Shown: piece by piece, positions 35,832-42,953 of the stretch
Position numbering within the stretch: position 1 is the stretch's first letter
How the letters are laid out: every line of letters begins with the position of its first letter
Source of the DNA: an uncultured Chloroflexia bacterium
Lineage (GTDB): Bacteria; Chloroflexota; Limnocylindria; QHBO01
Length of the DNA stretch: 64,000 bases
Direction: 5' to 3'
Assembly (NCBI GenBank): GCA_963838125.1
Contig: CAWIPT010000007.1
Location: 1,268,189-1,332,188 of the forward strand
Notes under the pieces: generated by a model
What the model was told of the DNA's origin: nothing
What the model saw: only the letters and a program-made list of their open reading frames with translations
Databases searched by the model: none
Made by a program: the position numbers and the translations under genes

Positions 35832-36969
35832 TCAGGCGGTGGAAAGACGCCGAAATCGGACCAGTCGGGTCGTCCGGGTGGGCTCCAGGAAGGTGAGCAA
35901 CCGTTCGCCCTCGGCGCCAACGGCATCGGTATCCCCCGCCGAGAGCTTCTCGAGCAGGGCGACGTCGAGCGTAACTCCTTCCCCGCCGCGTTCGCGTTCG
36001 ACGCGCCAGATAGCCCGTCCGAAGCCGTCGACCAGGATGGACCCGAAGTTGATCATGTCCAGCTTGAGGACCGTTCGCCGATGGTGTTCCTCGACAATCC
36101 TGCCGCGATCGGCGTGGGACAGGGTGACGTTGTCATACACCGGGAGGAATCGCACCGGAGCCGGGGTATCGGCTGCGGGCCGCGGGGCGTCGGGGAGGTC
36201 GAACAGGACTCGTCCCTGGTCGTCACGAATCAGGCGGAGCCGCGGCCGGAGTCGGTCGAGCACCTCGGCCGCGGCGGGGAGCCCGGACCAGGCCCGCACG
36301 TCCGCCGCGTTCGCAGGCCCGAACGCGGCGAGGTAGCGGAGCACCAGGCGGTCCGGGGTCGCATCTCTGGCCAGTGGCCGGCCCAGCCACGACTCGACCG
36401 TGGCCCAGCGCGCTTGCCCGGAGCGTTGCCACAGGGCACGGGGCGGGACCTGGACGACCGGGACCAGGAACGTCACCGCCTGGGCGAGGGCCGCGGAGTC
36501 GGCCGTCGGAAACTGGGGGCCGAGCGCGTCGCGGAGCTCGGCCCGGGTGCGCGGCTGTTCCTCGAGCATCCTTCGGCCCGCATCCACGACAGCGGCGACG
36601 TCCACCCCGGCGCGGGCGAGGCTTCGGCCGAACGGGCTGCCCGACGACAGCATCCGCTCCAGGACCGGACCGAGAACAGGCCGCATGGTGAGCATGTCTC
36701 GGTCGGTGACGAGGTGGATGGTCGCCCGCAGCAGCTGGGCACGGACAGCCCGTCGGTCCGCCAGCAGGTCGGACAGGGTCATCGGGTCAAAGCCCTCGAT
36801 CCGCGACCACAGCGCGATGTACGGATCGATCGGCTCCTGGGCTTGGAGCCCGACTAGGTGCTCGGTGACCTCAGCCGGCGTCTGGTTGACCCGCTCGAGG
36901 AGGTACTGCCGGGCAAGGAGCGCGCGGTTCAGGGAGCGCCGATCGAAGCGGACCGTCAGTCCGGCTCAT
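35832..36969 (-). CDS. winged-helix DNA glycosylase family protein (HTH_42 / AlkZ-YcaQ family), copy 2; 5' end anomalous
   Basis: The listed ORF starts at ATG 36782. However, the same frame stays open upstream and encodes the conserved N-terminus VRFDRRSLNRALLARQYLLERVNQTPAEVTEHLVGLQAQEPIDPYIALWSRIEGFDP, with no ATG/GTG/TTG. ATG 36969 (overlapping the ltrA stop) is one base out of frame, so this is either a 1-nt indel or a non-canonical start. Confidence 0.75.
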
Positions 36970-38183
36970 CGGGCGCCCCACCACGGGTATTCCCGAACCG
37001 CCTCGCTTCCTCCAGGGTGAAGACACCCCGCCGGCTGCGAATCCAGGCCCGCGCATACCGATAACGACCCACCTCGTACGCGATCAGGCCCACGCACACA
37101 GCTGCGGTCAGTCCGAGCGCGACGAGGGCCGGCACCTGGAGGGCCACGGGAATGAGCCCGAGCAGGACGATCGCAGCGATCGGCCGGCCACGCCCCAGTC
37201 CGCCACCGAGTCGGAGCCGAAATCCGACGTGCGCGAGGAAGTACAGCGCCAGGCCACCGCACAGCCCGACGGCCGGGATCGATCCCAGGGGATCGCCGAA
37301 ATGGGCCAGCGTCTCCTTCAGCCCGAGAGCGAAAAGCACGATCCCGGCGACCATCGGCAGGTGGAGATAGGAGTAGAGGTCGCGCGCGAGCGCGGCACGC
37401 TCGGCACCCGTCGCCTCGACCAGGCGAGCCCTGGCCATATAGGCGACCCAGTCGAAGTACGACCACCACAGCGCGGCGATGACGGTGATCCCGAGCAGGG
37501 CAGCCGTGATCTCGCCCGCGTCGAGCGGCAGGCCCGCTGCGCCGACGCCGATCGCGACGATGGACTCCCCGAGGGCGACGATCACGACCAGCCCGTGCCG
37601 CTCGACGAAGTGCTCCGGCGACACGCGCCATCCCCGCGCGCGACCGACGAGGGCACCGAGGTAGTCGACCGCGAGCGCCACGACCCACAGCACCATCTGG
37701 GCGGCACCGTCGAGGAAACCCGCGACCACCAGCAGGACCGGGGCGGCGATAGCGGTCGGCGCGATGCGCAGGACCGCGCCGAGCAACTCCGGATCGCGCT
37801 TGCCGGCGATCGCGTACAGGACCAGGTGCAGGGCGCGCACGATGAAGTACGCGACCCCGAAGACCACGCCCTCGGAGCCGAAGGCGTTGGGCGTGGCGAG
37901 CGCCACGATGAGCATCGCCGCGATCGAGCCGAACACCGCGAGGCGGACGGCTCCTTCCTCCGGGTTGAGCGTGTTCGTCAGCCAGGCGTATGCGGCCCAC
38001 GCCCACCACAGCGCGGCGAGCAGGAGCAGGCCCTGGAGGAGGCCCTCCCAGGTTGGCTTCTGGGACAGGAACCCGGTGACCTGGGTGATGGCAAAGACGA
38101 AGACGAGGTCGAAGAACAGCTCGAGCGGTGTGACCCGCTGCTCGGACTCGACCTGCCGGACTCGTCGATCGCTGATCGGTCAC
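36956..38183 (-). CDS. ltrA: low temperature requirement protein A (LtrA) family membrane protein; 5' end anomalous
   Basis: The conserved N-terminal RVTPLELFFDLVFVFAITQVTGFL...LWWAWAAYAWLTN lies upstream of the listed GTG at 37936, in the same frame and with no canonical start. GTG at 38183 overlaps the upstream stop (GTGA) but is one base out of frame. An indel near 38145 is inferred. Confidence 0.8.
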
Positions 38184-41031: not shown

Positions 41032-42243
41032 CTACGGCCGGAGGAGGGCGGCGAGGAACCCCGGTTCCAGGGCGCGGGTCGCCGGCACGAGATCGCCGAT
41101 CACGAGGCCCATCGTCTCACGGACGGGCTCCCGGCTCGCCAGCCGGCGGGCGGTGTGGCCGAACAGGGCCGGCCGAGAGAGGAACGACTGGATGAGCATC
41201 GTCACCACGTCCTTTGCCCGGAACCGGGCGGTCATGGTCCGCTCGTATCTGTCCAGGGCATTCGCGGCGCCGGCCAGGTGCTCGTCCACCGCCCGTGCGG
41301 CCAGGGCGGCAGAGACCAGCGCCCGATGCATCCCCTCCCCGGTCAACGGATCGAGGAACCCCGCCGCGTCACCCACCAGCAGCCAGCCGCGGCCGGCTCG
41401 GCGCGCCACCCGATGGCCGAGCGGGGCCGCCCCCTCGATCGGATCCAGGCGCTCCGCATCGGCCCAGGCCACGGGATCATCGGCCGCCGGCGGGATGGCC
41501 GATAGGACGGCCCGAGCAACCGACGCGGCGCCCTCCCGTGCCAGCCGTCGGCGCCATGCCTCGCCGGCCAACACGATCCCCACGTTCAGCCGCGCCCCGG
41601 GCACCGGCGCCAGTCCGCAGTAGGCATCGGGCAGGATGACCATCCGCGCATCGGCTCCGCTCCGGTCCGACCGGGGATCGGTCACATGAAAGGTCAGTCC
41701 CACCCGCGCGCCCAGGCGTGCCGGTCGGACGACGCCGGCTACCCGTGCCACCGTCGATCGCACCCCATCGGCTCCGATGACCACCCGTGCCTCGAGCTCT
41801 TCGTTGCCAATCCCAGCTCGGGTCATGACCCGCGACGTCGAGCGATCGAGCGAGAGCCCGGTTACGGTTACTCCGGTCCGGACATCGACACCCGAAGCCC
41901 GGGCCAGGTCGAGGAGCGCCTCGTCCAGGCGCTCCCGGTCGAAGCCGACGGCGGGATCGGTCAGGCTGCCGTCGTCGCCGTAGGTCAGGCGAAAGGCGGT
42001 CCCGTCGACCTCGACCCGCATGGCCGGGATGGGGTGGGTGGCGGATGTCAGCACGTCGGACGGCAGACCGATGCGACGCAGGGCGGCCACCGACGCCGGC
42101 GAGCTGAACACCCCGCAGGCGTGCCACCGCCATCGGTGCGACCGTTCGATCAGCACCACCCGCCGGCCGCGGCGCGCGAGCAGGGCGGCGGTGACGGCTC
42201 CAGCCGGCCCGCCGCCGACCACCACCGCGTCGGCGACGCTCAC
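41032..42243 (-). CDS. FAD-dependent oxidoreductase, geranylgeranyl-reductase family
   Basis: GTG at 42243 overlaps the upstream stop (GTGA). It has the dinucleotide motif VVVGGGPAGA, then IGADGVRS and LVGDAAGFLDPLTGEGM. Confidence 0.85.
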   Translation of the reverse strand: MSVADAVVVGGGPAGAVTAALLARRGRRVVLIERSHRWRWHACGVFSSPASVAALRRIGLPSDVLTSATHPIPAMRVEVDGTAFRLTYGDDGSLTDPAVGFDRERLDEALLDLARASGVDVRTGVTVTGLSLDRSTSRVMTRAGIGNEELEARVVIGADGVRSTVARVAGVVRPARLGARVGLTFHVTDPRSDRSGADARMVILPDAYCGLAPVPGARLNVGIVLAGEAWRRRLAREGAASVARAVLSAIPPAADDPVAWADAERLDPIEGAAPLGHRVARRAGRGWLLVGDAAGFLDPLTGEGMHRALVSAALAARAVDEHLAGAANALDRYERTMTARFRAKDVVTMLIQSFLSRPALFGHTARRLASREPVRETMGLVIGDLVPATRALEPGFLAALLRP

Positions 42244-42953
42244 CGCGACTCCAGCGGCACGGCGACGATCGCCCATCGGTGCCCCACGATCCCGCTGGTC
42301 TCGTAGGTCGGTCGGAGGCCGGCCCGAAACAGCAGGGCGTACACCTCGGTCAGCGTGTACGCGCGTCGCGCGGAGAGCGGGGCGTCGTGCCGGCTGAAGC
42401 GGTTCGCGGTGAAGGCATGCGACATGAGCCAGGCGCCGAGGAACGTGATCGGCCGTCGCGACAGGTCGTTCACCACGATGCCGCGTCGTGCCACCCGGGA
42501 CATCTCCCGCAGGAACGCGACCGCTTCGGTTGGATCCACGTGGTGAAGGACCATGGATGAATGGACCACGTCGAAGGTGTCGTCGGAGTACGGCAGCTTT
42601 CGGCCATCCGCGACCTCGAGCTTGAGGCCGTCGATTTCATCGAGGCCAGGCGTGGCTGCCCGCGCGGCCGCGAGCACCTCCTCCCGGCTGTCGGTCGCGG
42701 TGACACTGACCTGGCGGCCCTCTCGGCCGGCTTCGGCGAGCAGCGCCACCGGGATGTCGGCCGCACCTGTCCCGACGTCGAGCACGGTGAGCGGATCCGG
42801 GCCCGGAGCCAGGAAGGCGATCGCCCGCCGCGAGAGGCCCGCGCCGCCGGTCAGCCGGTTCACGCGCTTCAGGTCGCGGAGGTTCCCGCGAAAGGTGGCC
42901 GCATCGTCGAGGTGGCCATCGAGAAATTCGGGAACGCCTTCCACGCGCTTCAT
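42240..42953 (-). CDS. class I SAM-dependent methyltransferase
   Basis: Start ATG 42953 (MKRVEGVPEFL...). SAM motif I VLDVGTGAADI, later DVVHSSMVLHHV. The part of the listed ORF upstream of 42953 is non-coding-like. Confidence 0.8.
   Translation of the reverse strand: MKRVEGVPEFLDGHLDDAATFRGNLRDLKRVNRLTGGAGLSRRAIAFLAPGPDPLTVLDVGTGAADIPVALLAEAGREGRQVSVTATDSREEVLAAARAATPGLDEIDGLKLEVADGRKLPYSDDTFDVVHSSMVLHHVDPTEAVAFLREMSRVARRGIVVNDLSRRPITFLGAWLMSHAFTANRFSRHDAPLSARRAYTLTEVYALLFRAGLRPTYETSGIVGHRWAIVAVPLESR

Follow-up and report, generated by a model that had tools for sequence, protein, structure and literature searches.

AlkZ-type DNA glycosylase genes beside a class-wide four-gene operon of Limnocylindria

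Glycosylases of the HTH_42 family are told apart by a short catalytic motif: (Q/H)-aliphatic-Q marks the AlkZ-like (AZL) type and Q-aliphatic-D the YcaQ-like (YQL) type (PMC9040887). In Streptomyces, AZL enzymes such as AlkZ (azinomycin B), HedH4, TxnU2/U4 and LldU1/U5 have been recruited to biosynthetic clusters as self-resistance proteins, and AZL-containing clusters typically carry multiple AZL copies together with transporters; nevertheless, only a minority of AZL genes reside in clusters and most lie outside them, even in Streptomyces (PMC9040887). Here we analysed a 64,000-nucleotide stretch of Chloroflexota DNA (the window; ~70% G+C), in which a block of seven minus-strand genes (35832-42953) joins a methyltransferase (MT), a flavoenzyme (FADox), an SRPBCC protein and a beta-ketoacyl synthase (KS) to two putative AZL glycosylases (AlkZ1 and AlkZ2) and an LtrA-family membrane protein. 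We propose that the first four genes (the cassette) form a core lipid/polyketide-like operon, that the repair glycosylase and LtrA genes are lineage-specific neighbours of it, and that the small insertions and deletions (indels) that interrupt several of the genes are assembly errors, a combination that we regard as probable though not secure.

Every named close homologue of the block, and all of the best 80 genome loci, come from Limnocylindria (Chloroflexota), a class with small genomes (~2.4 Mb, ~69% G+C; PMC10608941). The actinomycetal setting supposed in a preliminary description of the locus is therefore rejected. These 80 loci, from metagenome-assembled genomes (MAGs) and each covered as far as its contig reaches, formed the comparison set. 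The closest relative, L085, is a Joint Genome Institute metagenome contig with 88.6% nucleotide identity over 7 kb; L006 and L003 are two labels for the same locus. Domains were called with Pfam and NCBIfam profiles, structural neighbours were sought in the PDB, and frame breaks were mapped by tblastn with intact orthologues as queries and by nucleotide alignment.

Across this set, MT-FADox-SRPBCC-KS occurs in identical order and orientation in 80/80 loci, as far as the contigs reach. Of 81 loci, 73 show the complete set of four families, the remainder being contigs that end early, and clustering of open reading frames (ORFs) over the 80 loci returned the four cassette genes as the only universally conserved ones. 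Most cassettes are flanked by unrelated housekeeping genes on the opposite strand (aldehyde dehydrogenase, DeoC aldolase, PfkB kinase, peptidases, transporters, DUF2461), and no conserved flanking gene hinting at a pathway was found in the 80 loci besides a NUDIX hydrolase gene. The latter, with a complete Nudix box, lies between FADox and SRPBCC in 32/80 loci (for example L017:11199-11669) and is missing from the AlkZ-linked clade described below. Judged by its gene order, the cassette is an autonomous four- or five-gene operon conserved across Limnocylindria.

The glycosylase genes, in contrast, are confined to a small part of the class. Only the window, L085, L006, L086, L087, L007, L014, L010 and L024 have an AlkZ-like gene at most 10 kb from the cassette. 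In a neighbour-joining tree of the flavoenzyme, the AlkZ-linked loci all fall in one clade of 11 taxa, of which 8 have AlkZ-like genes near and three (L001, L005, L008) do not. Near the cassette of the 73 other loci, neither an AlkZ-like nor an LtrA gene was found in 817 kb of flanks, 42 of these loci reaching at least 5 kb downstream of KS. Conserved synteny, by which the preliminary description proposed to judge the block, thus holds locally, in one clade, but the seven-gene set is not kept beyond it.

Within the clade, the position of the AZL genes varies. They lie downstream of the cassette in the window, L085, L006 and L087, and the full arrangement KS-AlkZ1-[LtrA]-AlkZ2 is found in these four loci and in L086. 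In L007 and L014, one or more AZL genes, a major facilitator superfamily (MFS) transporter gene and MT follow one another upstream with 4-nt overlaps, AlkZ2 being 2-4 kb downstream; in L010 and L024, AlkZ2 lies 3.4 kb downstream of the cassette. L085 carries three AlkZ-like genes. The LtrA gene (36956..38179, minus strand; Pfam LtrA, 326.8 bits, above the gathering score, over profile positions 1-355 of 356) sits between the two glycosylase genes in the window and L085 only, and is missing from L006 and L087.

AlkZ2 has a neighbourhood of its own. It is always followed by a conserved spacer of ~168 nt (35663..35831, minus strand in the window), the 110-aa ORF C6 (35330..35662, minus strand) and the convergent 99-aa ORF C7 (34941..35240, plus strand; up to 98% identical across loci), and neither ORF has a Pfam match. 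C6 orthologues were recovered by clustering in L006, L007, L010, L014 and L024, and a 110-aa ORF at equal spacing is present in L087, L091 and L092. In L091 and L092 the AlkZ2-C6-C7 trio occurs without a nearby cassette (AlkZ2 orthologues at 58-63% identity) and AlkZ2 keeps an E1_dh neighbour besides C6 and C7. A conserved neighbourhood of this sort is as reported for YQL and AZL2 genes and unlike in-cluster AZL genes. As far as the tree and gene order tell, the adjacency of glycosylases and cassette arose once, in one family, beside a pre-existing AlkZ2 block, and was later rearranged, expanded or lost; as a one-time event of this kind it does not require a functional link.

The spacer is itself well conserved, with 82% mean identity over 8 loci (58-78% for the flanking proteins) and long invariant blocks; it is also found at L006:15188-15355, L091:8295-8462 and L092:4853-5020. 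Nested inverted repeats (TCCACC...GGTGGA) are predicted to form nested hairpins, in which covariation is absent and paired positions are invariant. An Rfam search of the whole window and of the spacer returned tRNAs only. This element may serve as an operator or a terminator/promoter, or be a structured RNA.

The preliminary description had suggested that the block is a cryptic cluster for a genotoxic product. In a fuller form of this explanation, the cassette would make a DNA-reactive molecule or intermediate, and AZL glycosylases and an MFS pump would have been recruited for self-resistance, in parallel to the Streptomyces cases cited above. The packing within the clade speaks for this, as 1-3 AZL copies lie at most 5 kb from the cassette in 8 of the 11 clade loci, on the same strand and often overlapping, with a KS-AZL gap of 2-4 nt in L085, L006 and the window. 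The wider distribution speaks against it. Found throughout the class, the cassette lacks a nearby AlkZ-like gene in the 73 loci outside the clade, as far as their flanks reach, and in 3 of the 11 inside it, so that the co-occurrence of glycosylase and cluster that marks AZL self-resistance is not seen; the constant partners of AlkZ2 are C6 and C7, not the cassette; and all linked cases, being in one clade, count as a single evolutionary event. A genotoxin cluster with built-in resistance is thus not borne out by the comparison, and further evidence on both sides came from the proteins themselves.

Both glycosylases belong to the AlkZ-like family PF06224 (cutoff 25.9 bits). AlkZ2 (35832..36969, minus strand) matches the profile at 248.6 bits over positions 2-329, and AlkZ1 (38180..39291, minus strand) in two frame-split pieces of 69 bits (positions 1-100) and 87 bits (99-328) that meet at ~100. 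Once its frame is restored, AlkZ1 is a 370-aa protein with 46% identity to AlkZ along its entire length and 19% to E. coli YcaQ, and its orthologue in L003 matches S. sahachiroi AlkZ (PDB 5UUJ) over the full length at E=3e-85. AlkZ2 is more divergent (19% identity to AlkZ, 15% to YcaQ) and a phmmer search of the PDB gave no match at E<=0.001, so its subfamily was called from the motif alignment only. In this alignment, the positions of AlkZ Q37/Q39 (VQAQ) read VQSQ in AlkZ1, LQAQ in AlkZ2 and LQID in YcaQ; the middle Ser of AlkZ1 (GVQSQ in the window, GVQAQ in L006) is not strictly aliphatic. Since both proteins carry Q-x-Q, both are by motif AZL-type and not YQL. The possibility that both are YcaQ-like, which would have undone the original proposal, is consequently void, and their low identity to YcaQ (15-19%) agrees.

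In their full-length domain and Q-x-Q motif, AlkZ1 and AlkZ2 resemble the Streptomyces AZL proteins, and some Limnocylindria relatives likewise carry several copies beside biosynthetic-looking genes and an MFS transporter. They differ in their Chloroflexota host, in standing by a class-wide cassette that mostly has no AZL gene nearby, and in having stand-alone orthologues elsewhere. Indeed, AlkZ1-type proteins at 59-63% identity are abundant (P0167, P0219 and P0229 come from Actinomycetota, Acidimicrobiia and Gaiellaceae MAGs), and the three genomic contexts inspected (~60% identity) showed stand-alone genes amid unrelated neighbours. The AZL motif and the closeness of AlkZ1 to AlkZ speak for a self-resistance role, but the widespread stand-alone orthologues, together with the location of most AZL genes outside clusters, count against it. 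Two further AlkZ-like paralogues lie upstream of the cassette beside an MFS gene, at L085:1501-2604 (motif VAAQ) and L014:5772-6869 (VQAP); from their motifs they may be inactive or altered in function, and the VQAP of L014 could instead be a sequencing error.

A different precedent is E. coli ycaQ, an HTH_42 gene that is tightly packed and co-oriented in the operon msbA-lpxK-ycaQ-ycaR-kdsB, a set of envelope-lipid genes with no known functional link to it (PMC9040887). YcaQ differs from the present proteins by its Q-I-D motif and by sequence (15-19% identity), and the lipid A and 3-deoxy-D-manno-octulosonate (KDO) genes around it are unrelated to the cassette. By analogy, the ycaQ operon is nonetheless the best model for genes that are packed together but not linked.

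The seven domain names given in the preliminary description all match the Pfam calls. MT (42240..42953, minus strand, 237 aa) is a class I S-adenosylmethionine-dependent methyltransferase (Pfam Methyltransf_25/11/31), weakly UbiE-like, whose best NCBIfam match, PRK06202, lies under its cutoff. FADox (41032..42276, minus strand; Pfam FAD_binding_3) is a FAD-dependent oxidoreductase nearest to the geranylgeranyl-reductase (GGR) superfamily: its top NCBIfam match, TIGR02032 (GG-red-SF), scores 146.7 bits, below the cutoff of 158.8, and its PDB matches are weak, to flavin halogenases and GGR alike, which places it by homology as a divergent member of the GGR/halogenase/hydroxylase fold. It recalls the known GGR flavoenzymes in that GG-red-SF is its nearest family, albeit below the cutoff, and in being paired with a UbiE-like class I methyltransferase; unlike them, it falls far below the equivalog cutoffs for MenJ, ChlP and DGGGPL reductase. 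Mycobacterial MenJ presumably also adjoins a methyltransferase gene, Rv0560c.

The SRPBCC protein (40563..41021, minus strand, 152 aa) is polyketide-cyclase-like (Pfam Polyketide_cyc2, Polyketide_cyc), and its nearest solved structures are, weakly, the WhiE and TcmN aromatase/cyclases (E ~2e-7). KS (39295..40566, minus strand; Pfam ketoacyl-synt and Ketoacyl-synt_C) is FabF-like and split over three frames in the window. Its identity to E. coli FabF is 42%, with the Cys163-His303-His340 triad, Lys335 and Phe400 all conserved; Lys335 and the Phe400 gate are features of elongating beta-ketoacyl-acyl carrier protein synthase (KAS) enzymes. In NCBIfam, it scores 428 bits for TIGR03150, under the equivalog cutoff of 493.75, and 420 bits for PRK07314, above the cutoff of 387. 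The best solved KS matches are FabF enzymes (1J3N at 1e-97), but in contrast to FabF/KAS II the cassette KS lies outside any fab cluster and in the constant company of SRPBCC, flavoenzyme and methyltransferase.

The cassette also recalls type II polyketide synthases (PKSs), through the match of KS to the actinorhodin KS (1TQY, 3e-73), the aromatase/cyclase-like SRPBCC protein and the flavoenzyme and methyltransferase as 'tailoring' genes. However, its single KS is nearer to FabF than to KS-alpha, the SRPBCC likeness is weak (E ~1e-7), and type II PKS sets are accessory clusters whereas the cassette is a class-wide core operon. The diagnostic combination of KS-alpha, chain-length factor and dedicated acyl carrier protein (ACP) is not present: a phmmer search of the six-frame translation of the window with E. 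coli AcpP gave no match, and no chain-length factor, second KS or ACP-sized conserved ORF lies beside the cassette in the 80 loci. The same phmmer search found no FabH or FabG. A FabD query found a remote match only (at 30375-31613; ORF 30573-31616, ~4 kb away), which is devoid of Pfam support, and no conserved acyltransferase accompanies the cassette. No type III PKS was present in the Pfam-annotated part of the window (28-53 kb). That the operon has neither ACP nor type III PKS, as originally described, agrees with the ACP search of the window and flanks and with the Pfam annotation of 28-53 kb. A literature search on the four-gene cassette or on Limnocylindria biosynthetic clusters returned nothing relevant.

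The ORF hit by the FabD query belongs to a conserved plus-strand block at 28282-31971, whose products are a 763-aa fusion protein of E1 dehydrogenase/transketolase type, a protein of 347 aa and a DUF498 protein. The likeness of the 347-aa protein to FabD concerns its N-terminus and was seen with phmmer only (E=3e-11, small database), Pfam giving no match. This block accompanies AlkZ2-C6-C7 in L006, L014, L024 and L092.

In the explanation that we favour, KS would extend an acyl chain on the housekeeping ACP, the SRPBCC protein would bind, dehydrate or cyclise the hydrophobic product, the flavoenzyme would reduce a C=C bond or oxidise the product, and MT would methylate it. Such a pathway would end in a modified lipid or quinone-like metabolite of the membrane that is part of core metabolism, and not in a strain-specific toxin. 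A core lipid/quinone pathway is the most economical model because there is no dedicated carrier protein, the cassette is conserved class-wide and the genomes are small. AlkZ1 and AlkZ2 would, by family, excise bulky or crosslinked N7-alkylguanines and so offer general protection from environmental alkylating agents, and LtrA would have been inserted between their genes in the lineage of the window and L085. For a genotoxic product, the SRPBCC likeness to type II PKS aromatase/cyclases could be cited, as could the aromatic-ring hydroxylase, cupin and second SRPBCC genes near the L085 cassette; conversely, the single KS without chain-length factor or ACP, and the failure to find any warhead-building enzyme (epoxidase-, aziridine- or cyclopropane-type), do not fit it. 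Weighing these together with the distribution of the cassette, we consider it unlikely that the cassette makes a genotoxin against which the glycosylases and pump protect, yet the inference keeps some weight, as within one family AZL genes and an MFS pump have repeatedly been joined to the cassette. A more specific version is improbable, if only slightly more so: that the ACP-less KS/SRPBCC/flavoenzyme/MT operon yields a DNA-reactive lipid or quinone, guarded here by one to three AZL proteins and the MFS transporter and elsewhere by NUDIX as the alternative protection.

The NUDIX gene also raises a second functional link, in which cassette chemistry (flavin turnover, or an electrophilic lipid/quinone intermediate) would damage DNA or nucleotides and AZL or NUDIX enzymes would be co-expressed as protection. 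In its favour, a NUDIX gene with weak MutT/RppH-like matches lies inside the cassette in 32/80 loci, and AZL genes are joined to the same operon in another clade; E. coli ycaQ likewise sits in an envelope-lipid operon. But NUDIX enzymes have many non-DNA substrates and the matches are weak, in ~40 loci both NUDIX and AZL genes are missing from the vicinity, the pattern tracks phylogeny and so amounts to few independent events, and such a link is without experimental support in any system. We give it very little credence.

The gene order along the minus strand (MT, GGR-type flavoenzyme, SRPBCC, FabF-like KS, AlkZ1, LtrA, AlkZ2) was confirmed. Among the junctions initially proposed, the MT/FADox GTGA overlap, the 10-nt FADox/SRPBCC gap and the SRPBCC/KS ATGA overlap can all be read off the sequence, but GTGA coupling of AlkZ1 to LtrA is unsupported. 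FADox has two candidate starts, the GTG at 42243 (which gives the GTGA overlap with the MT stop) and an ATG 33 nt upstream, at 42276. The 14-nt LtrA/AlkZ2 overlap is intact in L085, whereas in the window the ATG at 36969 is out of frame with the AlkZ2 body. In L085, the junctions along the block are an overlap, 10 nt, -4, 2 (KS/AlkZ1), 7 (AlkZ1/LtrA, with an ATG) and -14 nt (LtrA/AlkZ2). All seven genes are on one strand, with gaps too small for a promoter or terminator, and the packing is kept in relatives; that they form one transcription unit, as had been proposed, is therefore plausible. Scans of 35200-43300 found no promoter-like sigma-70 site and one site resembling an intrinsic terminator (1.7 expected by chance), but both scans are uninformative for this phylum. 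AlkZ1, LtrA and AlkZ2 would be transcribed by read-through from the cassette promoter, which is probable because the gaps leave no room for signals.

The described seven-gene picture fits the lineage in its essentials but not the window sequence taken literally, since four of the seven genes (KS, AlkZ1, LtrA, AlkZ2) are not encoded intact in the window as given, owing to indels of 1-2 nt. KS is broken by single-base insertions at ~39899, ~39672 and ~39300, the last of which abolishes the stop at 39295-39297 (relatives end in '...GAPx*', and removing one G gives 'GAPR*'). AlkZ1 is broken by a 1-nt deletion at ~38904, and AlkZ2 by a 1-nt insertion at 36949 that disrupts the frame after the ATG at 36969. 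For LtrA, none of the start codons ATG, GTG and TTG occurs in frame before 37936 in the window: where L085 starts LtrA with ATG, the window reads ATC, with a 2-nt insertion after it. As LtrA start, the GTG of the GTGA was considered and rejected, since it does not lie in the LtrA frame and the start in L085 is an ATG 7 nt past the AlkZ1 stop. In L085 all seven genes are intact (KS 422 aa, AlkZ1 370 aa, LtrA 403 aa), and an intact 422-aa KS is also encoded in L006 and L087.

These interruptions could mean that the locus is decaying, the frameshifts being real: KS and AlkZ1, and perhaps LtrA and AlkZ2 as well, would be lost from this strain, and the block would be a remnant. The crowding of six or seven small indels into ~3 kb (39899 down to 36949), when the 2.4 kb of MT-FADox-SRPBCC and ~7 kb of syntenic genes nearby are free of them, would fit this, as would the substitution at the LtrA start and the truncated 316-aa form in which AlkZ2 is publicly called on the window's contig. 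However, the ratio of non-synonymous to synonymous divergence (dN/dS) between the window and L085 is 0.08-0.16 in each segment past a shift, equal to that of unbroken genes, and 0.08-0.11 in all three KS segments. Frame-split cassette genes are moreover common in long-read-style loci and rare in short-read-style ones (11/26 vs 1/54, Fisher p=7e-6), where long-read style means 'contig_N' names and megabase contigs, short-read style k141/k127/NODE names, and assembler type is inferred from the naming; the window sits on a 1.36 Mb contig (P0249). Finally, the indels cluster where synonymous divergence (dS) from L085 rises (0.5-0.8), which fits consensus errors from mixed strains. The KS of the window had been flagged as a possible true pseudogene; low dN/dS past the shifts and the concentration of splits in long-read-style loci do not agree with this, and KS as a pseudogene of a dead cluster is judged unlikely. 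Altogether, we consider it very probable, on this comparative evidence, that the indels in KS, AlkZ1 and the 5' ends of LtrA and AlkZ2 are long-read consensus errors, and improbable that the locus is decaying.

Elsewhere in the window, the conserved DUF1015 gene (53844-55213, minus strand) is likewise split, over three frames by two small indels (~54455 and ~54048), with a last segment up to 100% identical to relatives, and this supports assembly error behind the frameshifts of the window. A 5'-3' exonuclease gene (4336-5219, plus strand) breaks off 28 positions into its C-terminal SAM-fold domain (97 positions), followed by an overlapping ORF in another frame; this break may be another indel. 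Between window and L085, dS rises within the block, from 0.14-0.23 in MT, FADox, SRPBCC and the 5' portion of KS to 0.47-0.76 in the 3' portion of KS and in AlkZ1, a jump that suggests a recombination breakpoint inside KS, coinciding with the indel cluster.

Several observations weigh against the explanation that we favour, a core operon with lineage-specific repair genes beside it. Within the clade, the AZL genes lie on the cassette strand, often with overlapping stop and start, in two to three copies and together with an MFS transporter, and such packing resembles that of the resistance genes of known AZL-containing clusters (PMC9040887). The identity of AlkZ1 to the azinomycin resistance enzyme (46%) is unusually high. 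The NUDIX gene in the cassette of other lineages could be a sign that nucleotides or DNA repeatedly need protecting. Both the lipid/quinone assignment of the cassette product and assembly error as the cause of the frameshifts are steps that we infer, and the change from ATG to ATC at the LtrA start, being a substitution, does not look like a typical indel error.

The region around the block appears prone to rearrangement. It is bracketed by a tRNA-Arg(TCT) gene just past C7 (34831-34905, minus strand) and a tRNA-Glu gene (50619-50695). The variable stretch at 43924-50695 encodes MarR, a weak F420H2-quinone-reductase-like ORF, cupin/TPR, TetR, a macrolide-type glycosyltransferase and an alpha/beta hydrolase; L085 has in the equivalent place its third AlkZ-like gene, SRPBCC, the aromatic-ring hydroxylase and cupin. 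Over the wider upstream interval (43.9-52.5 kb), MarR, TetR, the glycosyltransferase and the hydrolase are joined by an AHSA1/SRPBCC protein and an MFS transporter, and this neighbourhood looks like a general xenobiotic-response set, a further point against tying the glycosylases to a biosynthetic cluster.

The novelty of the locus is a new setting for known enzyme families and an uncharacterised class-wide operon. Should a genotoxic metabolite be involved after all, a single-KS system of non-canonical type would underlie the first pathway guarded by AlkZ outside Actinomycetota. AZL self-resistance would then no longer be confined to actinomycetes, and a genotoxic lipid or quinone of a new kind would be indicated. 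If the ordinary explanation is true, AlkZ-type (Q-x-Q) glycosylases would be common stand-alone genes in uncultured soil Chloroflexota and Actinomycetota, and genome mining guided by resistance genes should treat adjacency in compact genomes as weak evidence; a second warning would concern pseudogene-like indels in long-read MAGs. For heterologous expression, the four- or five-gene operon would be a defined target that occurs throughout Limnocylindria, an uncultured lineage abundant in soil.

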